A stretch of 64,000 bases of DNA, taken from positions 893 to 64,892 of the forward strand of contig DHGE01000126.1 of NCBI GenBank assembly GCA_002402635.1, in the 5' to 3' direction. Made by a program: the position numbers and the translations under genes. Under the pieces are notes generated by a model, which was not told the DNA's origin, searched no databases, and was given only the letters and a program-made list of their open reading frames with translations. The DNA is from Deferribacterales bacterium UBA4806 (GTDB taxonomy: Bacteria > Chrysiogenota > Deferribacteres > Deferribacterales > UBA228). Below are positions 1-39,825 of the stretch, one piece after another; the first letter of the stretch is position 1; each line of letters opens with the position of its first letter.

Positions 1-612
1 TTTTTTACCCTTGGTTTTGCATTTTTGACACTGGTAACCATCTCTATGTAATATATAAGCTTTTAAGTTATAAAATCCTTTTTGATTACCTTCCTGATAT
101 TCTTTACCTTTAACATCAGGATTAGTAATTTTATATATATCAAAATTTCCTGTTTCCACCTTCCATCTTGTTACTGGTAATATACTTTCTACAAACTTTT
201 TCTCCCTTAAATGTGAATCTAATTTAGATTTAATACTTGGGGCTAACCTATCCTCTTTTTTCATAGAAGCCCTATTTTGCCATCTTGGTTTTCTGTATCT
301 AGTTTTCATATACCTTCTATTTCTACGGTACATCTTTCTTTGTTTCATCTTTTTTGATACATCTTGTCTTATTTCAATTTCTGATTGATAAACTACTTTA
401 CCATTTGCTATAGCTGAACATCCTATCTTCTTACTACCTGTATCCATACCCGCAACTACTTCTTGCACATTCTCTTCACAATCCCAAAGTAATTTAATTG
501 TGAAAGGATTTTTCCTGATAACCTTTGCTTTACCATCCCTTAAAAGTTTACGTGCCTTAGCTTCTTTACAAGGCATCAAAGGATTACCATTCTTATTAAT
601 TACATACACCAT
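1..612 (-). CDS. iscB: IscB-type RNA-guided nuclease, N-terminal 204 aa (gene runs off the window start)
   Basis: Own translation from ATG at 612 (minus). MVYVINKNGNPLMPCKEAKARKLLRDGKAKVIRKNPFTIKLLW is the PLMP domain. AGMDTGSKKIG carries the RuvC-I Asp. RRNRRYMKTRYRKPRW is the Arg-rich bridge helix. VETGNFD carries the RuvC-II Glu. HRDGYQCQKC starts the HNH domain. Absent from the ORF track because it is open at the edge. Confidence 0.85.
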   Translation of the reverse strand, partial: MVYVINKNGNPLMPCKEAKARKLLRDGKAKVIRKNPFTIKLLWDCEENVQEVVAGMDTGSKKIGCSAIANGKVVYQSEIEIRQDVSKKMKQRKMYRRNRRYMKTRYRKPRWQNRASMKKEDRLAPSIKSKLDSHLREKKFVESILPVTRWKVETGNFDIYKITNPDVKGKEYQEGNQKGFYNLKAYILHRDGYQCQKCKTKGKK

Positions 613-895
613 GTCTTTAAGACCTCCTGTATGTTGAAGAAATGCGTATCCGAAACATCGGAGTTATTTCGGAATCCGTCCTCCTCTCGAACAGATATGG
701 GAAGGTTTAACGATACAGGCACTATCCCTACCACACAGGATTGTTTAGTTTGTATCCATAGAGGTTGGGACTGAGGCGACATCCCAACGTATCTAATTTC
801 TTCCCTATCGTTTACTAACAACCTTTACCTCCTGTTAGTGTTCTGGTATCCCTGTAGCTGAAAGCTACTGAACTATTGTTCATTGGTGAGATACA
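613..895 (-). ncRNA. candidate omega-RNA (IscB guide-scaffold RNA) directly upstream of iscB
   Basis: Only GC-enriched non-coding stretch in the window, and it ends at the iscB SD/ATG. Hairpins seen: 650-672 (CCGAAA/TTTCGG), 764-788 (GTTGGGA/TCCCAAC), 814-839 (ACTAACA/TGTTAGT), 854-868 (GTAGCT/AGCTAC). The 5' limit is uncertain. Confidence 0.55.
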
Positions 896-900
896 ACAAC

Positions 901-1974
901 TCATTTTTCCACAGAATGTTCTAAACCTTTCAAATAAATAATCGCATCCTCATAATATTCCAAAGCTACCATCCTATGTGAGTCAGGGTAGAGTATAACA
1001 GTTGGTATTATATTATTAGCGTGGTCATAACCAAGTGATTCACCAAATTCATCGAACAATTTGAATGTACCGCAACTAAGAGCTAGTCTCTTTTTCCCGT
1101 GTCTCCAGAATGTTTCAAGCCCACCTTCGTGTAAATGCTCCATTGTTATGATATCTAAATCCCCAATGCTAGCTAAATCATATTTTCTTTTATGGGCGTG
1201 GTGTCTATTCAAAACACTATTGTATTTAAGTTTGTGGTTGATACTAATCCTATATTCTTCATTTCCTACAGTAACAAAAACATACGTTCCGTTACTCCCT
1301 GTATAAATGAATTTATTTTTGTCAACAAAAATATCTTGAGCTGATATAAGAGCCATCTTTTTAGTAAACTCTTCGTGATTACCTAATCCCACATATAAAA
1401 AACTATCTTGATACTCTTCCAATATATATTTGAATAACATCCACTGTTTGTACACTGCTATGTCAGTTTTGTCTGTCTGTGAAATTAATTTTTGTATAAT
1501 AAAATTATCTATAGTATCACCACCTAAAGCAATATACATATTCTCTTCGTTATGTATAGCGTCCAAAGTTTTTTTCAAGCGAGCTACGTCACAAAAGGGA
1601 TTTCCTAAATGAACATCGCTAATAAATGATATAGCGATAGGTTTATCAGTATTTATGTTTATTTTACTAATTTTCTGAAAAATATTATCGTGCTTCCTAA
1701 ACACATTAAATTTTTCATCCTGTATTTTACACAATTCTTGCAGATACTGCTCAGGGTCAAAACCGTTTTCAAATTTTTCTCTGCTATTTTGTTCAAAAAT
1801 TACCTTTGATTTTTTTATATTCCCTCTGAAAAAATGTCTAATACTCTCTGAGCTTCTATTGTATCCTTTACACTTCATCAAATCGGATAATTGGTTATTT
1901 GTATAATCTGGGTGCTCTTCCCTGAGCTTTTTTATAAATTCTACTTCCTCATCACTCCAAAGGTTTCCTGCCAT
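901..1974 (-). CDS. calcineurin-like metallophosphoesterase with N-terminal Myb/SANT-like segment
   Basis: Motifs SFISDVHLG, GGDTIDNF and GLGNHEEF, plus later His residues. N-terminus reads WSDEEVEFIKKLREE. Confidence 0.7.
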   Translation of the reverse strand: MAGNLWSDEEVEFIKKLREEHPDYTNNQLSDLMKCKGYNRSSESIRHFFRGNIKKSKVIFEQNSREKFENGFDPEQYLQELCKIQDEKFNVFRKHDNIFQKISKININTDKPIAISFISDVHLGNPFCDVARLKKTLDAIHNEENMYIALGGDTIDNFIIQKLISQTDKTDIAVYKQWMLFKYILEEYQDSFLYVGLGNHEEFTKKMALISAQDIFVDKNKFIYTGSNGTYVFVTVGNEEYRISINHKLKYNSVLNRHHAHKRKYDLASIGDLDIITMEHLHEGGLETFWRHGKKRLALSCGTFKLFDEFGESLGYDHANNIIPTVILYPDSHRMVALEYYEDAIIYLKGLEHSVEK

Positions 1975-5334: not shown

Positions 5335-5703
5335 TTAAACATAAAAACAATTTATCTCACACATAAAATTATTATTTACCACTTTTTCAACATAATACGA
5401 AAAACTTATATTACACACCTTCTGATACTTTTTCCCTCTTATTTCGAAAACCTTTTCTATAACATATTCCCCATCTACCTTATGTGCTACTGTATCTATA
5501 ATTTCCATTAACTTTCTTAAATCACATACAAACCTTACCTTCAAGAATACCTCATTTTCAACTACTAAATTTATTTTATTCTGCTTCAGCTCACAAAAAA
5601 CTCTTGGTTCGAAATCAGGAGCTATCTCTGTTATAATATTTACAACTTCCTCAGTATCAGCAGGCACATCAACTATTAATAAATCTAAACTATCACAACT
5701 CAT
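5335..5703 (-). CDS. hypothetical protein
   Basis: ORF in the tiling, 4-nt overlap with the upstream gene. Confidence 0.5.
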   Translation of the reverse strand: MSCDSLDLLIVDVPADTEEVVNIITEIAPDFEPRVFCELKQNKINLVVENEVFLKVRFVCDLRKLMEIIDTVAHKVDGEYVIEKVFEIRGKKYQKVCNISFSYYVEKVVNNNFMCEINCFYV

Positions 5704-5993
5704 TGTTCCCTCTTATTACCATAATTTTCATTATCATTTATCACCACCTCGTTATTTATTTTCAAATAATCAAACAAATTATCAGCCAATACATTTTCAT
5801 CTTTCATCAAAAAACAAATCTCAGGGCTTACCTTTTCTAATATTACATTTTCTCCTTTCAATACACACCCTTGCTCTAAACTATAAATCATTTCTAAAAA
5901 ACAACTCACCACTCTTCTGGTTTTGGGATTACTTTCTACTCCTATTGAACTCAAAAAATCATTTACTGTAATTATTTTTTTATTAATTCCCAA
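5700..5993 (-). CDS. hypothetical protein
   Basis: ORF in the tiling. Confidence 0.5.
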   Translation of the reverse strand: MGINKKIITVNDFLSSIGVESNPKTRRVVSCFLEMIYSLEQGCVLKGENVILEKVSPEICFLMKDENVLADNLFDYLKINNEVVINDNENYGNKREQ

Positions 5994-11035: not shown

Positions 11036-11893
11036 TCACTTTATTAAATTTTTATCCTGATACAGTTTTTCTGCTTTCTTTCTTTCCCAAGTTTTCTTTA
11101 CTGCTTCCGTTCTCTTTTTTATATGCTCTTCAGTTTGTTTTTTACCCTTTATCCAAGTGAGTTTACCTTTCTTTGCTTCTGATTTTTTTCGTCTTGTTTC
11201 TTCACTATCTTTTTTACCTTGTAATGATTTAGATATTTTTTTCTTTTCCTCTTCTGTACGAGGTATTCCTTTATTCCAAGGAGATATACCATACATAGGG
11301 TTCTTTTCACCAATTTTTGATACTGATTTTTTTAATCTTATCTCTTCGTTATCTTTTCTACCTTTCATTGCTTCCAACTTTTTTCGTCTTGTTTCTTCAC
11401 TATCTTTTTTACCTTTATTACCTTCTCTTATTTTTTGTATTGTTTCTTCAGAAGGATGCTTCCCATATAAAGGATGGTTTTTACCACTAAGACTTTCTGA
11501 TACTTTTCTTCTATGTTCTTCAGTACGTATTTTTCCTTTATTACTTGCTCCTATTTTTTTCTTACGTTCTTCTGAACATTTTACTCCTAATATATTTCCT
11601 GCTGTAGGTGATATATTATATAAATTTTTTATCCCATAAGTATTTATAGCTCTTTGCTCATAAAATAACAAATTTTCTTTGTCACAATATAATAAAGGCT
11701 TAAATTCAAAATTTTCTTCCCCATATTTATTCCAAACATTTTGTAAATAAATACAATGGTGTTTATTTTTCATTAAATCTCTTTTATGATTCTTAAATCT
11801 ACCCTTCAAATTTATAGCACTTCCTACATATAATTTCCCATTAACTTTATTTTCTATTATATAAATCCCTGTATTAAACTTAGATTTTTTCAT
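11036..11893 (-). CDS. GIY-YIG homing endonuclease with NUMOD3 repeats (paralog of 1986..2798)
   Basis: GIYIIENKVNGKLYVGSA. The N-terminal roughly 110 aa align colinearly with 1986..2798. Repeats of the type GKNHPLYGKHPSEETIQKI. Confidence 0.85.
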   Translation of the reverse strand: MKKSKFNTGIYIIENKVNGKLYVGSAINLKGRFKNHKRDLMKNKHHCIYLQNVWNKYGEENFEFKPLLYCDKENLLFYEQRAINTYGIKNLYNISPTAGNILGVKCSEERKKKIGASNKGKIRTEEHRRKVSESLSGKNHPLYGKHPSEETIQKIREGNKGKKDSEETRRKKLEAMKGRKDNEEIRLKKSVSKIGEKNPMYGISPWNKGIPRTEEEKKKISKSLQGKKDSEETRRKKSEAKKGKLTWIKGKKQTEEHIKKRTEAVKKTWERKKAEKLYQDKNLIK

Positions 11894-20891: not shown

Positions 20892-21455
20892 TCAAATTCT
20901 ATTCCTAAGTCGTGCCATAAATTCATCCTTACAACCATCTTTATTTTCAAGAAAAATTCCACGTGCTTCAATCACTTCAAAAGGGCAATCCCATTTTTTA
21001 AGACCTCGCATTTCCTTACAAAGATGTCTTCCTGTCATTAAAAGGATACACCCAAGAGGATGGACAGCTTCCTCAATATAATCTAAAATATTTTTAACTA
21101 ATCTTTCTTGTATTTGAAGGCGCGCGGAAAAATAATCAATCGTTCTACCTATTTTACTTGCTCCCAAATATCCATATTTTGAATCAGGAATATAACCAAA
21201 ATAATAATGCCCAAAAAATGGAACCATATGATGCTCACATATACTAAAAAAATATCCTTTATCCGTAATTAACCCTTGAGGAGTTTCATCATTAAAAATA
21301 GTAATCACAGGAGGATTATCATGGTACCCACGAAATAACTCACAATACATTTTAGCAATTCTCAACGGTGTATCTTTTAACCCTTGACGTTCTGGGTCTT
21401 CACCTATCTCTAAAAGAATTTGTTTAAAAAGATTTGAAATTTTATTCATATTCAT
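20892..21455 (-). CDS. folE: GTP cyclohydrolase I
   Basis: DTPLRIAKMY and SICEHHMVPFFG. Confidence 0.9.
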   Translation of the reverse strand: MNMNKISNLFKQILLEIGEDPERQGLKDTPLRIAKMYCELFRGYHDNPPVITIFNDETPQGLITDKGYFFSICEHHMVPFFGHYYFGYIPDSKYGYLGASKIGRTIDYFSARLQIQERLVKNILDYIEEAVHPLGCILLMTGRHLCKEMRGLKKWDCPFEVIEARGIFLENKDGCKDEFMARLRNRI

Positions 21456-21458
21456 CTT

Positions 21459-22142
21459 CTATTGTCCTCCTTCATATTCAATAGGGTCTTTAATACCTAA
21501 TTCACAAAACGCTTCCAATCTTTCTTGACAACTTCCACATTTCCCACAACTAACAGGTTGACTCTTATAACATGTTCTTGTAAGATAATATGGAACCTGA
21601 GGATTACATTCCAATCCTTTTTTAAGAATAGTAATTTTATTATCATTAATTAATGGTGCCAGAACTTCTACTTTACAATTAGAAGATAAAAAAATAGCAG
21701 TATCCAATGCCTTTATAAATTCTTTTCGACAATCCGGGTAAATATAATGGTCTCCTTGATGGACACCAAGTGCAATAGCATTTGCATCAATTGATTCAGC
21801 CAATCCTGCCATAATGCCCGCAAAGATAAAATTACGTTCGGGAACAACCGTTACAGACATCGATTTATCATTATAATAACCCTCAGGAATATCACCACAA
21901 TGAAGAAGTAAATTAGATTTAAACACTTTCATAATATTGGAAATATCCATCATGTACTTTGTAATAGAAAATCCTTGTTTAAAATAAAATTCAAATACAG
22001 ATTGAGCTGCAATATTTTCCCATTTATTATGTTTAGAACCATAATAAAATATACAACAATGTACATCATAACCTTGCTCAAGTAAAATTCCAAGTAAAGT
22101 TGCTGAGTCCATCCCACCTGACAATCCCATAACTACTTTCAT
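21459..22142 (-). CDS. queC: 7-cyano-7-deazaguanine synthase
   Basis: VVMGLSGGMDSATLL (PP-loop) and C-terminal Cys cluster CYKSQPVSCGKCGSC. Confidence 0.9.
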   Translation of the reverse strand: MKVVMGLSGGMDSATLLGILLEQGYDVHCCIFYYGSKHNKWENIAAQSVFEFYFKQGFSITKYMMDISNIMKVFKSNLLLHCGDIPEGYYNDKSMSVTVVPERNFIFAGIMAGLAESIDANAIALGVHQGDHYIYPDCRKEFIKALDTAIFLSSNCKVEVLAPLINDNKITILKKGLECNPQVPYYLTRTCYKSQPVSCGKCGSCQERLEAFCELGIKDPIEYEGGQ

Positions 22143-22163
22143 AAAATCCTCCTATACGTTCTA

Positions 22164-22204
22164 CTTATATTTATATTATAAGTAAATATACAATTTCATT
22201 TAGG
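22164..22204 (-). promoter_or_regulatory. phage-specific promoter-like motif (upstream of queC)
   Basis: Minus strand: GCCTAAATGAAAT-N11-TTATAATATAAATATAAG. Overlaps the queE stop codon. Confidence 0.4.
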
Positions 22205-22880
22205 CTAATCCTAAAATTTTATGTAACTGTAATGAAATAATTACTCTATCTCTAAATTTATCAGGGAAAAAGAAAAGAACCCCTTTATTTTTTGTATCTG
22301 CATTCATAGGACTGATGATAAACATTCCCTTATACCCCATACTATCTAATTCTATCATATCCGTAACCACAAAATCTCTATCTTTATGATAATAAGGAGA
22401 AACAGTAGAAGCAACTACATATTTAAAAATAACTGGAGTTTTATTCCAATTATAAAAATCTATTCCTAACTCTCCAATAGGACGTGATTGATTTTCAGAG
22501 GAAGGTCCTTTTCTATCTATAACCCAACCTCCACGACCTTGTATCTCTGATATAACAGGAATTGGTAAAGAACCATTAGTTTCTATTTGGACATAATGTC
22601 CTGCCAATAATAAAATTCTAATAAAATCAATACAATTCTCTGCCAAGAGAGGTTCTCCACCTGTAATCAATACTTGTTTGGTTTTAATCTTATTAAATAC
22701 ATCATCCGCAGAATATTCTATTCCGCCTTTAGAGGATTGCGCTTTAACAGTGTCGCAGTAGATACAACGTAAATTACATTTTTGAAATCGAAGGAATATA
22801 CAAATACTTCCCTGAGGAAAGAAACCGGATTCTCCACTAATAGAAACAAAAGGTTCTTCATGTAGATATAATTTCTTCAT
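22200..22880 (-). CDS. queE: 7-carboxy-7-deazaguanine synthase (radical SAM)
   Basis: FQKCNLRCIYCDT (CxxxCxxC), ITGGEPL. Confidence 0.85.
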   Translation of the reverse strand: MKKLYLHEEPFVSISGESGFFPQGSICIFLRFQKCNLRCIYCDTVKAQSSKGGIEYSADDVFNKIKTKQVLITGGEPLLAENCIDFIRILLLAGHYVQIETNGSLPIPVISEIQGRGGWVIDRKGPSSENQSRPIGELGIDFYNWNKTPVIFKYVVASTVSPYYHKDRDFVVTDMIELDSMGYKGMFIISPMNADTKNKGVLFFFPDKFRDRVIISLQLHKILGLA

Positions 22881-27366: not shown

Positions 27367-28650
27367 CTACACCCCTATTATTATTTCTGGATATTCTTTA
27401 CTTCTAACTGTCAGGTTAGGTTTCATGAAAAGTGGAATATTGAATTCATTACATTGTATAATCAGAGATTTAACCCATTTCCATTCTGGTTGACCTTCTG
27501 ACATCCCAGTTGACCTAGACCTTCCTCCTACAATTAGCCACTCGATAGGTGGATTTTTTGGAAGTACTATATGTTCCATTAAAGGTTCACATGAAATAAA
27601 TCTGGTAGGATGATTTATTTGTTCGAAAATTTCTAAGGCAAGATTCATTCTTTTTTGAGTATCTGCCGTAGCCCCTAACCAGCAAGTTTCTGGCCACCTG
27701 AATTCTAAATAACGTTTAGGATTTTTAGTAAGAATAATGCAATTCCATTGAGGAGATTTTTTCATACTTTCTATCACCTGTTCAATCCACTCTTTCTTTA
27801 CCCAATCACCAAGCATATCTCCCATAGACACTGTAAAAACATTGTGAATACCAGATTCATTTTTCCTGTTTTCTGGTATTTTTGTGTTTTCTGGAGCTGA
27901 TAATCTTTTAGGATAGAAATGAGGTTCAAATCCATGAGGATAAAAACGATTAGCTATATCTCGAGCGTAACAGTAGGGGCATCCGTGTTTACATCCTGTA
28001 ATGGGATTCCATGTCCACTTTGCCCAGTCGATATTTTCATTGGTAGTATTAAAAGTAGGTTTTTCAACTTCTTTTCTTTCCTTTTTTTCTTTTCTAAGTT
28101 CTCCTGCCGCTTTATCAATGGAGATTTCTCCTACGATAACTTTGTTTTTTATTTCTTCATTATCTGAATCCAATATTGTTCTGGCATTACTAACGGTGGA
28201 GGAACCTACTCCTAATATTTCAGCAGTTTTTTTATGGGAAGGTTCTTTTTGTTCTTGAATCAAATTTTTGGTACCAAAAATTTGATTTTTAAATTCTTTA
28301 CTTTTACGGTCACCACCTCTTTTCTGTCTTTTATCCAAGGCTTCAATACATCTTAATATTTCTGCCTGGGTGAGATTTCTACGATTTCTTTGATTATGAA
28401 TAGCATACTCTAAGGCATGTCTTTCGGACTTAAATTCGTATTGTACCACCGGTATATCTTTTATCCCTGCTTGTTTTGCCGCTTCAAGTCTGGTATGCCC
28501 ATCAATTACAATGTTTCCCCATAAAACAATTGGTAATGCTTCATCATACCCTTGTTCTTCCATATTTTCTTTTATAGCTTGTAAAATAGCATCATTTATA
28601 TCAAATATGGAATTAAAAGGTTCCTGTGTTTTGATTTCATCAATTTTCAT
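27367..28650 (-). CDS. ParB/Srx-like N-terminal domain + HTH + DUF5131 (phage Gp37/Gp68, three-Cys CxxxCxxC) fusion protein
   Basis: NIVIDGHTRLEAAKQAG (ParB motif), TAEILGVGSSTVSNA (HTH), WTWNPITGCKHGCPYCYA, FTVSMGDM, ILTKNP, ISCEPL, WLIVGG, PLFMK (DUF5131 pattern). Confidence 0.75.
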   Translation of the reverse strand: MKIDEIKTQEPFNSIFDINDAILQAIKENMEEQGYDEALPIVLWGNIVIDGHTRLEAAKQAGIKDIPVVQYEFKSERHALEYAIHNQRNRRNLTQAEILRCIEALDKRQKRGGDRKSKEFKNQIFGTKNLIQEQKEPSHKKTAEILGVGSSTVSNARTILDSDNEEIKNKVIVGEISIDKAAGELRKEKKERKEVEKPTFNTTNENIDWAKWTWNPITGCKHGCPYCYARDIANRFYPHGFEPHFYPKRLSAPENTKIPENRKNESGIHNVFTVSMGDMLGDWVKKEWIEQVIESMKKSPQWNCIILTKNPKRYLEFRWPETCWLGATADTQKRMNLALEIFEQINHPTRFISCEPLMEHIVLPKNPPIEWLIVGGRSRSTGMSEGQPEWKWVKSLIIQCNEFNIPLFMKPNLTVRSKEYPEIIIGV

Positions 28651-30502: not shown

Positions 30503-30541
30503 CTATATATATTATAGTTAAAAATCACATTTCATTTAGGG
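30503..30541 (-). promoter_or_regulatory. phage-specific promoter-like motif (upstream of the primase)
   Basis: Minus strand: CCCTAAATGAAAT-N11-CTATAATATATATAG. Overlaps the sigma-like gene stop codon. Confidence 0.45.
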
Positions 30542-31004
30542 CATTTTTTATATTGGTGAAAGCTTTCCATATTCTACTCCAAGACCAACCTTGTTTTCTT
30601 AATTTTTTATATATTTCACCTTTACAAACTTTGGGCAAAAATCCTACATATTCCAGAGGTGATTCCAAAATTATTTTACAAACCTCTCTTGCTTCAATTC
30701 CCATATCGTTAAGAAGTTCTGAAATTGGGGGACACCAGGGTACAGGAATTTCCATTGTTTCTCCAGTTTCTGTAATAAGAGATAAATGATTTTTTTCCTG
30801 TCTTTCTTTTACAATATAGGTTATCAACGCATTTTTAACATAGGTATAGATTAAGGTAGTTTTCTTATTACCTTTTGTTATGTCAAAATCCCGTAAAGCT
30901 TTGTAATATGCTACCAGAGCCTCTGATAGCATATCCTCATACTCAAGGTCTGGATTTTTATTCCAGAATTTCCACACTAAATTGTTGATTAAATTTGTTT
31001 CCAT
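30525..31004 (-). CDS. small sigma-70-family-like factor
   Basis: YEDMLSEALVAYYKALRDFDITKGNKKTTLIYTYVKNALITYI (region-2-like). C-terminal KKLRKQGWSWSRIWKAF is a region-4-like HTH. Confidence 0.5.
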   Translation of the reverse strand: METNLINNLVWKFWNKNPDLEYEDMLSEALVAYYKALRDFDITKGNKKTTLIYTYVKNALITYIVKERQEKNHLSLITETGETMEIPVPWCPPISELLNDMGIEAREVCKIILESPLEYVGFLPKVCKGEIYKKLRKQGWSWSRIWKAFTNIKNALNEM

Positions 31005-35791: not shown

Positions 35792-36505
35792 ATGATGAAA
35801 AAAGAAATAAATGAAACTTCAATTAGCAGATTATTAGAAAGGAATGAAAAATTTGATTGTTGCTTTATTACAGCTTTCAGACTAACAGATAACTGTGATA
35901 TGGGCAGACCTTATACTAAAAGAGAAAATATGGCAAGAAATTACTCTTTGGAATTAAAATTAGCACGTAGTTGGTATAGTGTTACCAGAGTCATTGGTAC
36001 TTATGAAGATAAAGGAAAAAAACAAAAAGAAATATCCTTTTTTGTAGTAGATGATAGAGTAGATGAAGATGACTCTTTGAAAAAGAGACAAGAATATACA
36101 AAAGAATTTTTAGAGGATATGTTATATTTAGGAGAATTATATGAACAGGATAGCATTTTATTCCTTCCCAAAGGTTCTATTTTAGGCAAAGCTAAACCTA
36201 TATTATATGGAACTAATGATTGTCCAAGAGCTATAGGCAAAGGAAATAAAGAATATTTTAATGGGGGTTCAAGAATTAATAAAACATCTAAACTATATAC
36301 TACTATTGTTAATGGTAAGCCTATGTATTTTGAAATGGGAGTAAATGAAGTTTATGGGGCTCAAACAGGGCTTGGAAATTTGGGGTTAGCTATATTAGCA
36401 AATAAACCTTGGAAAGATTTACTTAAATACATAGATGAAAAATATGAAAGAAATTATTTTAAAGACCCATATATAGAATATTGTAAAAATAGGAGGTTGA
36501 AATGA
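35792..36505 (+). CDS. hypothetical protein
   Basis: ORF in the tiling, AGGAAG RBS. Confidence 0.55.
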   Translation: MMKKEINETSISRLLERNEKFDCCFITAFRLTDNCDMGRPYTKRENMARNYSLELKLARSWYSVTRVIGTYEDKGKKQKEISFFVVDDRVDEDDSLKKRQEYTKEFLEDMLYLGELYEQDSILFLPKGSILGKAKPILYGTNDCPRAIGKGNKEYFNGGSRINKTSKLYTTIVNGKPMYFEMGVNEVYGAQTGLGNLGLAILANKPWKDLLKYIDEKYERNYFKDPYIEYCKNRRLK

Positions 36506-37821: not shown

Positions 37822-39825
37822 TTGGAAAACACTATGAAAAATACTTTTGAAAAAATCTTAAAAGAGATTGTTACAAACTCTCATTATACAACCACACCTT
37901 ATGATTTTTCTGTTTTGAATATTGAAATTTTAGAAAGTGCTTATGAAAGATTTTTAAGTAGGACTATAAATCTAATACACTTACATCAAATAAAAATAGA
38001 AGAAAATCCAGAGGGTAGAAAAGCTGGAGGAGTTTATTATACTCCTGAATATATTGTTGATTATATTGTGAAGAACACTGTTGCTAAAAAAATTGAAGGA
38101 CTAACTCCAGAGGAAATAAAGAATATAAAAATACTTGATCCAGCTTGTGGTTCTGGAAGATTTCTAACCAGTGCTTATGATTGCCTTTTAGAATATCACA
38201 AAGGATGGTATTCAAAAAATCAAAAAAATAAGGAATACAAAAAAGATTGGTATTCAACTGAGGATGGTAACCTCAAAATATGCATTGATAAAAGAGGAGA
38301 AATACTTAGGAACAATATTTTTGGTGTAGATATTGACAGGGAAGCAACAGAAGTTGCAATGATGAGCTTATACTTAAAAATGCTTGATGATGGACTTGAT
38401 AAAGGAGGGAGAGATCTTTCCTTTATGAAAGGACAGGTATTACCAGATATGGAAGATAACATAAAGTGTGGAAATAGTTTGGTCGGTCCAGATTATTTTG
38501 ATGGTAATCCTTTAGCTAATGATAAAGATGAACGTAAAACTATTAATCCATTTGAATGGAAAGCTGAATTTAAAGAGATAATGAATAATGGTGGTTTCGA
38601 TATTATTATTGGTAATCCCCCATATGTTGATATTAAAGGATTGGATCCAAAGATAGTAAAATATTATTTTAAAAAATACTCTACTGTTGAAAATAGGATG
38701 AACCTTTATGCTGTGTTTGTTGAAAAATCTTTAATTTTACTAAAATGTGAAGGATACTTTGGTTTCATTATTCCTAATTCTATTTTATACAATAAATCAT
38801 ATTACAAATTAAGATCACTTATTTTAAATAACACAACTATAAATAAAGTAATAAGATTACCTGATAATGTATTCCAAAATGTTAAAGTGGAAACAATTAT
38901 TTTAGTAATTGAAAATAAAAAAGTGGTTACAAATATATCACAGAGCGAAGTTATTATTTATCCAAGAGAGGCAACTATTAATGAAATAAATATAGAAGAC
39001 AAAAGTAAAGTTATAATATTTAATCAAGAAACTTGGAAATCTGAAGACAATATTATTAATATCTCCATTAATGTTTTAACAAAGCAACTGTTAGAAAAAA
39101 TAGAAAAAAAAGCCACACCATTAATAGATATTTGTGATTTTTCTTTAGGTATAACACCTTATGATAAATATAAAGGGCATACAAAATATCAAATAAAAAA
39201 TAAAATATTTCATTCTAAAATGAAAATAGATGAAACTTATAAACCCTTATTATCTGGAGAAAATATAATTAGATATGGTGTTTTTTGGGATGGCAATAAC
39301 TATATCCGTTATGGAAATTGGTTAGGAGCACCCAGAGAACAACGATTCTTTGTAAAATCCAGAATACTAGTTAGACAAATTCTAAGTGGCAAACCACTAA
39401 GAATTTACGCAGGATACTCAGAAGATGAACTTTATAATACACAAATTGCATTTAATCTTTTAATAAAAGATGGCGTTGATATCCAACTTAAATATTTACT
39501 TGCAATATTGAATTCAAAATTAATGAGCTTTTATCATAAAGAGAAATATTTAGATCCATCAAAAACTTTATTTCAAAAGATTTTAATAGTAAATACAAAG
39601 AAATTCCCAATGGTTATCCAAAAAACACAACAACAGCTTATAGCAGAGCTTGTAGAAAATATGATTAATGCTAATAAAGAACTATTAAATTGTAGGTCAG
39701 ACACAGATAAAAATATTATAGAAAGACAAATTAAATATCTTGATAAAAAAATTGATGAACTTGTGTATAGTATTTATGAATTGACAGATGACGAAATTAA
39801 AATAATAGAAGAAAGTTTAGGATAA
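37822..39825 (+). CDS. N6-adenine DNA methyltransferase (Eco57I/TaqI-like gamma class) with target-recognition domain; no nuclease domain
   Basis: YYTPEYIVDYIV, ILDPACGSGRFL (motif I), IIIGNPPYVDIKG (motif IV NPPY). The start is uncertain (TTG 37822, ATG 37834). Confidence 0.85.
   Translation: MENTMKNTFEKILKEIVTNSHYTTTPYDFSVLNIEILESAYERFLSRTINLIHLHQIKIEENPEGRKAGGVYYTPEYIVDYIVKNTVAKKIEGLTPEEIKNIKILDPACGSGRFLTSAYDCLLEYHKGWYSKNQKNKEYKKDWYSTEDGNLKICIDKRGEILRNNIFGVDIDREATEVAMMSLYLKMLDDGLDKGGRDLSFMKGQVLPDMEDNIKCGNSLVGPDYFDGNPLANDKDERKTINPFEWKAEFKEIMNNGGFDIIIGNPPYVDIKGLDPKIVKYYFKKYSTVENRMNLYAVFVEKSLILLKCEGYFGFIIPNSILYNKSYYKLRSLILNNTTINKVIRLPDNVFQNVKVETIILVIENKKVVTNISQSEVIIYPREATINEINIEDKSKVIIFNQETWKSEDNIINISINVLTKQLLEKIEKKATPLIDICDFSLGITPYDKYKGHTKYQIKNKIFHSKMKIDETYKPLLSGENIIRYGVFWDGNNYIRYGNWLGAPREQRFFVKSRILVRQILSGKPLRIYAGYSEDELYNTQIAFNLLIKDGVDIQLKYLLAILNSKLMSFYHKEKYLDPSKTLFQKILIVNTKKFPMVIQKTQQQLIAELVENMINANKELLNCRSDTDKNIIERQIKYLDKKIDELVYSIYELTDDEIKIIEESLG

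Follow-up and report, generated by a model that had tools for sequence, protein, structure and literature searches.

An IscB gene and its upstream omega RNA between two genes of an AT-rich phage genome

We analyzed a stretch of 64,000 nucleotides from the assembly of Deferribacterales bacterium UBA4806 (GCA_002402635.1, contig DHGE01000126.1, positions 893 to 64,892 of the forward strand), which is called the window throughout. At its left edge, the minus strand encodes the N-terminal half of IscB, a small transposon-borne nuclease from which Cas9 presumably descends, and directly upstream of this gene lies a candidate omega RNA. Both had been proposed in an initial annotation made from the sequence of the window, which had also assigned the DNA to a phage. 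This assignment agrees with the phage-like gene content, e.g. genes for a tape-measure-like protein, PolA, a DnaB-like helicase, and a primase. The part of iscB beyond the window edge was supplied by the contig L002 (ENA ERZ27315071, k141_1502243; 115,459 bp), which was found by way of the neighboring 357-aa protein. It is identical to the window at positions 1-2000 and in two samples of 3 kb each that reach as far as position 11,074. A window position p corresponds to the L002 position 11975-p. An independent contig from JGI, L003, is identical to the window locus over 3.6 kb. The features of the locus are compiled in Table 1.

The iscB gene and its upstream RNA

Translation of the minus strand from position 612 to position 1 yielded 204 residues without a stop codon, and the five motifs on which the initial annotation had relied (NGNPLMP, GMDTGSKKIG, RRNRRYMKTRYRKPRW, VETGNFD, and HRDGYQCQKC) were all present. 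The Pfam family RRXRR (PF14239) matched residues 2-175 over profile positions 1-174 of 174 (E=4.9e-62), and the PLMP motif comprises residues 11-14. In L002 the open reading frame (ORF) is complete and unbroken, with 402 codons (L002:11363-12571); HNH, RuvC-III, and a C-terminal domain follow, and a truncation of the gene did not materialize. The absence of the nuclease from the ORF list of the window, which had been noticed before, reflects that ORFs at the window edge were not listed.

The NCBIfam equivalog guided_IscB (NF040563), for which the cutoff is 175 bits, was matched with 347 bits by residues 2-299 on profile positions 1-313 of 314. IscB chains of solved structure in the PDB were matched with E=1e-40 when the single protein was used and with E=4e-62 when a profile was used. 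The protein has the domain order of the IscB-omega RNA OMEGA systems OgeuIscB (PDB 7UTN/7XHT) and GstIscB of ISGst5, i.e. PLMP, RuvC-I, bridge helix, RuvC-II, HNH, RuvC-III, and a C-terminal domain, whereas it is shorter than the 496 aa of OgeuIscB. All catalytic residues of RuvC are retained, namely D57 (RuvC-I), E153 (RuvC-II), and H291/D294 (RuvC-III), and they align with their counterparts in the IscB chains 11hr and 7xht. The HNH domain is situated between RuvC-II and RuvC-III and contains HVHH at 206-209 (H208/H209), N223, and H236, and the Cys4 zinc site (C195/C198/C228/C231) is intact. The catalytic and zinc residues are invariant across eight relatives, and the Pfam HNH domain was found in relatives as well as in the gene of the source contig. 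The exchanges D58A/H209A/H210A inactivate GstIscB (Meers et al., bioRxiv 10.1101/2023.03.14.532601); the corresponding residues here are D57, H208, and H209.

About 100 aa follow C-terminally to RuvC-III. Because they are conserved among relatives, and because a profile of eight relatives aligned unbroken (positions 2-393) to residues 133-526 of HfmIscB (9k2z_A), including the C-terminal domain, we take these residues to be the domain that interacts with the target-adjacent motif (TAM). A PDB search with the C-terminal 102 aa alone yielded only noise and no solved IscB. In contrast to the solved IscBs, this part of the protein thus has no single-sequence match and is covered only by the HfmIscB profile alignment. 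A single-sequence AlphaFold model of the 402-aa protein had a pLDDT of 35 and was too poor for use.

The ratio of nonsynonymous to synonymous substitution rates (dN/dS) of iscB versus its relatives is 0.07-0.10. The ORF has a GC content of 29.5% (18% at third codon positions, GC3), the phage flanks have 29%, and the gene has thus drifted to the AT-rich composition of the phage. A purine-rich, Shine-Dalgarno-like run (GGAGG, AAGGAG, or GGGAG) is present upstream of the start codon in L001, L005, L006, and L008 at the same place as in the window. The gene is complete and, as judged from its sequence, apparently encodes a functional RNA-guided nuclease.

The initial annotation had placed an omega RNA directly 5' of the ORF, and a covariance model search recovered it there. 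In a 2-kb search, the Rfam model HEARO (RF02033) matched positions 678-894 of the minus strand with 75.1 bits (E=8e-15) over model positions 1-211 of 211; searching the whole window gave E=2.6e-13. This was the sole RNA match in the window at E<=0.01, and it is present in a single copy. It has the same orientation as iscB and stops 66 nt short of the iscB ATG. HEARO RNA was later shown to be the omega RNA of IscB (PMC13565253; Meers et al.). As in the HEARO family, all 211 positions align, the same nested helices are formed, and the location relative to the HNH/IscB ORF is the same. The RNA differs in that it scores below the Rfam gathering score of 83 bits and has an additional 3' hairpin (650-672) outside the model, which, according to Meers et al., does not contain the downstream elements.

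HEARO was found directly upstream of iscB in 10 of 10 other loci scanned (L001, L005-L013; 67-115 bits), so the region is not an unconserved spacer. Among the close relatives only L007 passed the gathering score (114.7 bits), and L001, L005, L006, and L008 reached 67-82 bits; the more distant L009-L011 passed it with 107-114 bits. The upstream sequences of L015, L017, and L033, which the scan left out, align by eye with the omega RNA.

The six closest sequences share a consensus fold with 68 base pairs, and 93.6% of the alignment cells are paired. For 46 of the 68 pairs, both sides have changed with pairing kept. The observed values were reached by none of 500 shuffles, and sliding the partners by 1-3 columns reduced the paired fraction to 36-46%; the test comprises six sequences, and their alignment had also served for the structure prediction. 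The four hairpins that had been proposed at the outset (650-672, 764-788, 814-839, and 854-868) all occur in the minimum-free-energy (MFE) fold, and three of them occur in the consensus of the relatives. A possible pseudoknot would pair the loop GGAGG (832-828) with the downstream CCUCU (764-760) on the minus strand; because both strands are invariant or almost so in the relatives, this pairing is beyond the reach of covariation.

The region 613-895 had been described as the only GC-enriched and stop-riddled stretch of the window. The first part was correct, as its GC content of 42.8%, compared with 29.4% for the window, is the sole maximum among all 283-nt windows in the 64 kb. The second part was correct for two minus-strand frames, which contain 6 and 7 stop codons, but not for the third, which is open for an ORF of 73 codons (600-821, minus strand) that overlaps the omega RNA. 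It might be argued that 613-895 is this protein-coding ORF or a plain 5' leader, and not an RNA gene. A frame of 73-77 codons is indeed open in six of eight relatives, and gene callers annotated it in L001, L015, and L016. However, the differences among relatives are spread almost evenly over the three codon positions (434, 429, and 508), unlike those in iscB, the frame is broken in L007, and the region shows the whole-model HEARO match and the compensatory changes. The ORF, which had been suspected to be spurious, was discarded as a gene for lack of codon-position bias, and we give this alternative next to no credence. The results support the view that 613-894 of the minus strand is a genuine IscB omega RNA.

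Element ends, guide, and candidate target motif

In characterized loci, the omega RNA abuts the right end of the transposon and the guide lies just outside, so that transcription must begin outside the element, which leads to a bias towards the orientation of the upstream gene. The TAM, TTCAT for GstIscB, is found next to the left end on the downstream side of iscB (Meers et al.). The locus described here is organized like these OMEGA systems, with the omega RNA directly upstream of and co-oriented with iscB and the predicted guide outside of the element. Homology among the relatives starts at window position 894. We infer from the sequence that the element comprises about 1,525 bp (L002:11081-12605), and it is inserted exactly into the gap that separates the stop codon of one phage gene from the ATG of the gene that follows. 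Between the iscB stop codon and this ATG (L002:12606) are 34 nt with a hairpin made up only of A and T. The initial annotation had envisaged a tnpA gene and an IS200/IS605 right end beyond the window edge. Meers et al., however, apply the name right end to the omega RNA side, which is within the window; it is the left end with the TAM that lies downstream of iscB, off the window, and no tnpA gene is among the called genes of L002.

For the guide we presume the length of 16 nt that characterized IscBs have, which gives 5'-GGAAAAATGAGTTGTT-3' as the candidate sequence. Elsewhere in the window, it is matched no better than expected by chance. The best off-site match (5694-5709, minus strand, GGAACAATGAGTTGTG) has two mismatches and is followed by ATAGT instead of ATG[G/A]N, and it probably occurs by chance. 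No sigma-70-like site was found on the minus strand between the upstream 357-aa gene and the scaffold.

In all eight clade members the element is directly followed by ATG[G/A]N. The flanks are ATGGA in L002 and L015, ATGAC in L001, ATGGC in L005 and L006, ATGAA in L007 and L033, and ATGAT in L017. ATG[G/A]N is the reverse complement of N[C/T]CAT, and the predicted TAM of the locus, TCCAT, is one base off the TTCAT of GstIscB. In most clade members, the next co-oriented gene starts with the flanking ATG. The insertion precedes this ATG and therefore parts the next gene from the ribosome-binding site that it had before. Three members, L005, L006, and L001, have the iscB stop codon 5-6 nt ahead of the next ATG, which suggests translational coupling. 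When the flanks of L001 were joined, the reconstructed empty site was a typical overlapping stop/start junction, TTATGA. For the window locus, the reconstructed empty junction is ...GTGGAAAAATGAGTTGTT/ATGGATTTTGATTAC..., the slash marking the insertion point.

Two other sources of information on ends and empty sites were rejected. L014, which contains a relative of the flanking gene with 48% identity, was considered as an empty site and was dismissed because its downstream gene is unrelated. Multi-copy relatives from Parabeggiatoa, Thiomargarita, and Chloroflexota were not used for TAM prediction because they belong to another subgroup (about 45% identity) with different ends and no ATG flank. 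The corresponding empty junction of L006 had no match in viral contigs. Relatives of the 357-aa flanking protein were absent from viral and metagenome contigs, and the protein database yielded four matches.

Similar subterminal hairpins at both ends are a hallmark of IS200/IS605 elements. Therefore, the first and the last 75 nt of the elements were compared. For the window copy, the local similarity score was 13, below the 95th percentile of shuffles (18), and no matched subterminal hairpins were detected. The ends compared, at 869-882 (minus strand) and L002:12575-12595, have no subterminal hairpin in common. The phage-borne L001, L005, and L015 likewise do not have matched end hairpins; together with the window copy, they score 13-14, under the 95th percentile of shuffles. 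In contrast, L033 (a Thiomargarita chromosome), L007, and L006 contain a near-identical hairpin at both ends, with scores of 48, 42, and 27, compared with at most 24 for shuffles. Either this copy is beyond handling by TnpA, or the recognition rules of the subgroup are not understood.

A Y1_Tnp/tnpA gene was found neither among the called genes in L002 (10 kb upstream and about 5 kb downstream) nor among those in L001. A tblastn search with IS608 TnpA and a second query gave no match; this is a weak test, and the second query probably was not a true TnpA. In this respect the locus resembles about 98.5% of iscB loci, as only about 1.5% are accompanied by tnpA (Meers et al.). The module is thus a tnpA-less element of the IS200/IS605 type. 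In the cellular relative L017, in which iscB is split into two ORFs, a Y1_Tnp gene is located about 3 kb downstream (L017:11873-12568).

These comparisons bear on the possibility that the element is an insertion sequence mobilized by a peel-and-paste mechanism, with a Y1 transposase provided in trans by the host or by an unseen part of the phage, and that IscB serves for donor-joint cleavage only. Such a role of IscB is documented for Geobacillus elements (Meers et al.), and it would fit the matched hairpins in L033, L007, and L006, the Y1_Tnp gene of L017, and the presence of clade members at many different loci. However, the ends of the window copy do not exceed the shuffles, tnpA is absent from the called genes of L002, and a lytic-type phage would presumably seldom be a single-stranded lagging-strand template in a host that expresses TnpA. 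We consider this explanation rather unlikely. The missing hairpins, together with composition and selection, favor persistence by nuclease-driven copying over transposition, in what is a small sample.

Relatives and possible mode of persistence

The closest relatives of the protein are 66-82% identical and mostly encoded on phage-like contigs (L001, L005-L008, L015/L016). Proteins with 63-68% identity are encoded in genomes of Methanosarcina, Methanohalobium, Photobacterium, and Thiomargarita, so this IscB clade is not specific for phages. The relatives are found at differing loci with differing flanks, as is typical for mobile elements. Of 50,697 deposited phage records, 30 contain IscB homologues (E<=1e-10), which are mostly annotated as 'HNH endonuclease' or hypothetical, and two of these records cover at least 80% of the protein. 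The locus thus joins the IscB-like ORFs in phage genomes such as Clostridium phage c-st, Staphylococcus phage vB_SauM_VL10, Ralstonia phages Heva and Claudette, and a Nodularia phage, although each of the phage homologues in GenBank is less than 43% identical to this protein. Full-text searching found no study devoted to phage-borne IscB; a review from 2026 brought up, in theoretical terms, that co-infecting phages could be targets of homing (PMC13565253).

Several relatives have suffered mutations. L001 and L015 each contain a single in-frame stop codon at a conserved Gln (TAA at L001:10973-10975, GDY*QT; TAG at about L015:8592-8594, C*HC) and are otherwise intact; the stop codons may have arisen recently by nonsense mutation, or these phages may recode them. 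On the viral contigs L012 (116 kb) and L013 (70 kb), HEARO is followed by only the first 126 or so codons of iscB, beside a tRNA cluster (L012:4775-5375 and L013:3330-3930), and these copies look decayed. It might be assumed that the window copy is an inactive relic as well, stranded, no longer transcribed or functional, and decaying. The stop codons in L001 and L015, the remnants in L012 and L013, the unmatched end hairpins, and the absence of a nearby tnpA would be in accord with this. However, the 402-codon ORF is intact with every catalytic residue and zinc ligand, dN/dS is about 0.1, and the same sequence was recovered from independent samples (L003). Furthermore, the RNA has retained its helices and 43% GC in a genome with 29% GC and next to an iscB with a GC3 of 18%, which is hard to explain without selection on the fold. 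We regard a relic as improbable. Because of the low dN/dS, and because the RNA has remained GC-rich when iscB has the GC content of the phage, the protein and the RNA fold look as if they have been maintained by selection over a long residence in AT-rich genomes.

The protein family and its catalytic residues, the RNA family and its structure, the insertion position, and the absence of a nearby tnpA were all obtained as direct tool results. By analogy with GstIscB, the module is probably a selfish element that is retained and spreads by homing, via a read-through guide RNA, cleavage of the empty allele, and recombinational copying. On the omega RNA side, the element is not expected to contain a promoter of its own, so the guide would be supplied by read-through from the 357-aa gene; the 16 nt at the 5' end of the RNA (GGAAAAATGAGTTGTT) would be the guide, and the next 280 nt or so would be the scaffold that binds IscB. 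The ribonucleoprotein would recognize the uninterrupted junction 5'-GGAAAAATGAGTTGTT/ATGGA-3' by the guide match and the following 3' TAM ATG[G/A]N. The occupied locus would be immune because there the guide match is followed by GTATC. Such an empty allele might occur either as a donor joint left by excision or in a co-infecting sibling phage whose genome does not have the element. Once cut, it would be repaired by recombination from an element-bearing copy, and the element would thereby be reinstalled or spread, as is the case for homing endonucleases; the phage has its own RecA.

The initial annotation had raised the question of whether the nuclease is a selfish passenger or is used against host or competitor DNA. 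A domesticated weapon, i.e. IscB and the omega RNA directed against DNA of the host or of unrelated, e.g. unmodified, competitors, could explain that the ORF has fully acquired the phage composition and is under purifying selection, that matched end hairpins of the TnpA type were lost, and that the phage has putative DNA modification genes, which could shield its own DNA. However, the guide position is occupied by ordinary flanking sequence that includes the stop codon of the neighboring gene, and the sole predictable target is the phage's own empty allele. A second guide, an array, or a retargeting mechanism was not found, the guide has no further match in the window, and the relatives at differing loci resemble mobile elements. 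The evidence therefore favors a selfish passenger over a host-directed use, and we consider the weapon very improbable. As the guide appears to be the element's own flank, the natural target would be the empty allele of sibling phages and not host DNA.

Several points weigh against selfish homing as proposed here. Of the 115-kb contig, about 70 kb were inspected. The viral and metagenome contigs searched did not contain the uninterrupted junction as predicted (GTGGAAAAATGAG N0-14 ATGGATTTTGATTAC), and a sibling phage without IscB was not found in searches of viral, metagenome, and protein collections. The TAM was inferred from eight flanks and from analogy with GstIscB. As the ends do not have matched hairpins, TnpA-mediated excision may have ceased; in this case, the donor-joint half of the mechanism falls and only homing remains. 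The nonsense codons in the close phage-borne L001 and L015 indicate that decay is common. The HEARO score lies below the gathering score, so that a scan at default thresholds misses the RNA. Finally, 7-deazaguanine in the phage DNA, if present, could bear on target recognition.

In its location at an intergenic junction between conserved phage genes, the element resembles free-standing homing endonucleases of phages (T4 Seg/Mob, GIY-YIG, HNH), and like them it is predicted to cut the element-free allele and to be copied by recombination during co-infection. Two such genes, of the GIY-YIG/NUMOD3 type, are present in the same phage, one of them at a distance of 1.1 kb. Unlike in these enzymes, recognition of the target would depend on a 16-nt RNA guide and a TAM and not on the protein, and self would be distinguished from non-self by the presence or absence of the element, which has been termed 'transposon non-restorative homing' (PMC13565253). 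It differs from characterized OMEGA systems in its residence in a phage genome, in having no detectable matched end hairpins, and in a composition that is fully adapted to 29% GC. A more far-reaching possibility, which we put forward tentatively and consider doubtful, is that the clade represents a lineage of RNA-guided phage homing endonucleases independent of TnpA. Such a lineage would have lost the hairpins recognized by the transposase and kept the nuclease and the RNA, a CAT/ATG-type TAM would have sited it exactly at the start codons of phage genomes with little space between genes, and it would spread, and exclude element-free siblings, by cutting the intact junction during co-infection, maybe even on DNA modified with 7-deazaguanine.

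The element is a known kind of selfish element in a less usual home, and it leaves the knowledge of the IscB family unchanged. Chromosomal Geobacillus elements are the only ones for which experiments have demonstrated the natural role of IscB. An intact phage pair of IscB and omega RNA that appears to be under selection, with a predictable guide and target, would be a test case for 'transposon non-restorative homing', and it would allow asking whether such nucleases act on modified phage DNA. It also adds a compact 402-aa IscB with an RNA structure and a predicted TAM to the pool for editor discovery.

Table 1. Positions of the iscB locus components and of further genes discussed in the text (window coordinates unless L002 is given).
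Feature	Position	Strand	Remarks
iscB, codons 1-204 of 402	1..612	minus	PLMP domain, RuvC-I (D57), Arg-rich bridge helix, RuvC-II (E153), start of HNH (C195, C198)
iscB, remaining 198 codons, left end and predicted TAM	L002:11975-12610		beyond the window edge
Shine-Dalgarno-like AGGAGG	623..628	minus	10 nt 5' of the iscB ATG (612-610); read from the sequence
Omega RNA scaffold	613..894	minus	HEARO core 678-894, then conserved hairpin 650-672, then iscB leader
3' hairpin of the omega RNA	650..672	minus	outside the Rfam model; helix 10 with 9 pairs, 8 compensatory, 100% paired; in the MFE fold
Predicted 16-nt guide, 5'-GGAAAAATGAGTTGTT-3'	895..910	minus	flanking phage DNA outside the right end; contains the TGA stop of the upstream gene (903-901)
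Upstream phage gene, 357 aa	901..1974	minus	co-oriented; function not assigned; from the ORF list
GIY-YIG/NUMOD3 homing endonuclease	1986-2798	minus	free-standing; at 1.1 kb from the element; tandem coding repeats of NUMOD3 (72 and 51 nt)
Second GIY-YIG/NUMOD3 homing endonuclease	11036-11893	minus	free-standing
GTP cyclohydrolase I (FolE), QueC, and radical-SAM genes	20892-22880	minus	in a row
DUF5131/radical-SAM protein	27367-28650	minus
Sigma-70 region-2 protein	30525-31004	minus
SAM-lyase-like protein	35792-36505	plus
Eco57I/MmeI-type N6 DNA methyltransferase	37822-39825	plus	with TaqI-like specificity domain

The surrounding phage genome

No close DNA match to the window was found among deposited phages, and no deposited phage has a DNA polymerase with more than 29% identity to the one encoded here. 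No tRNA was found in the window. A CRISPR array was not detected near iscB; the only repeats there are the coding NUMOD3 repeats of the neighboring GIY-YIG gene. The set of FolE, QueC, and radical-SAM genes presumably belongs to a pathway for 7-deazaguanine (preQ0-type) DNA modification as found in phages, and, from this gene content, it is plausible that the phage DNA is hypermodified with 7-deazaguanine. The replication genes encode PolA with a UDG-exonuclease partner, the DnaB-like helicase, the primase, and a clamp-loader-like ATPase, and RecA and the tape-measure-like protein are encoded as well.

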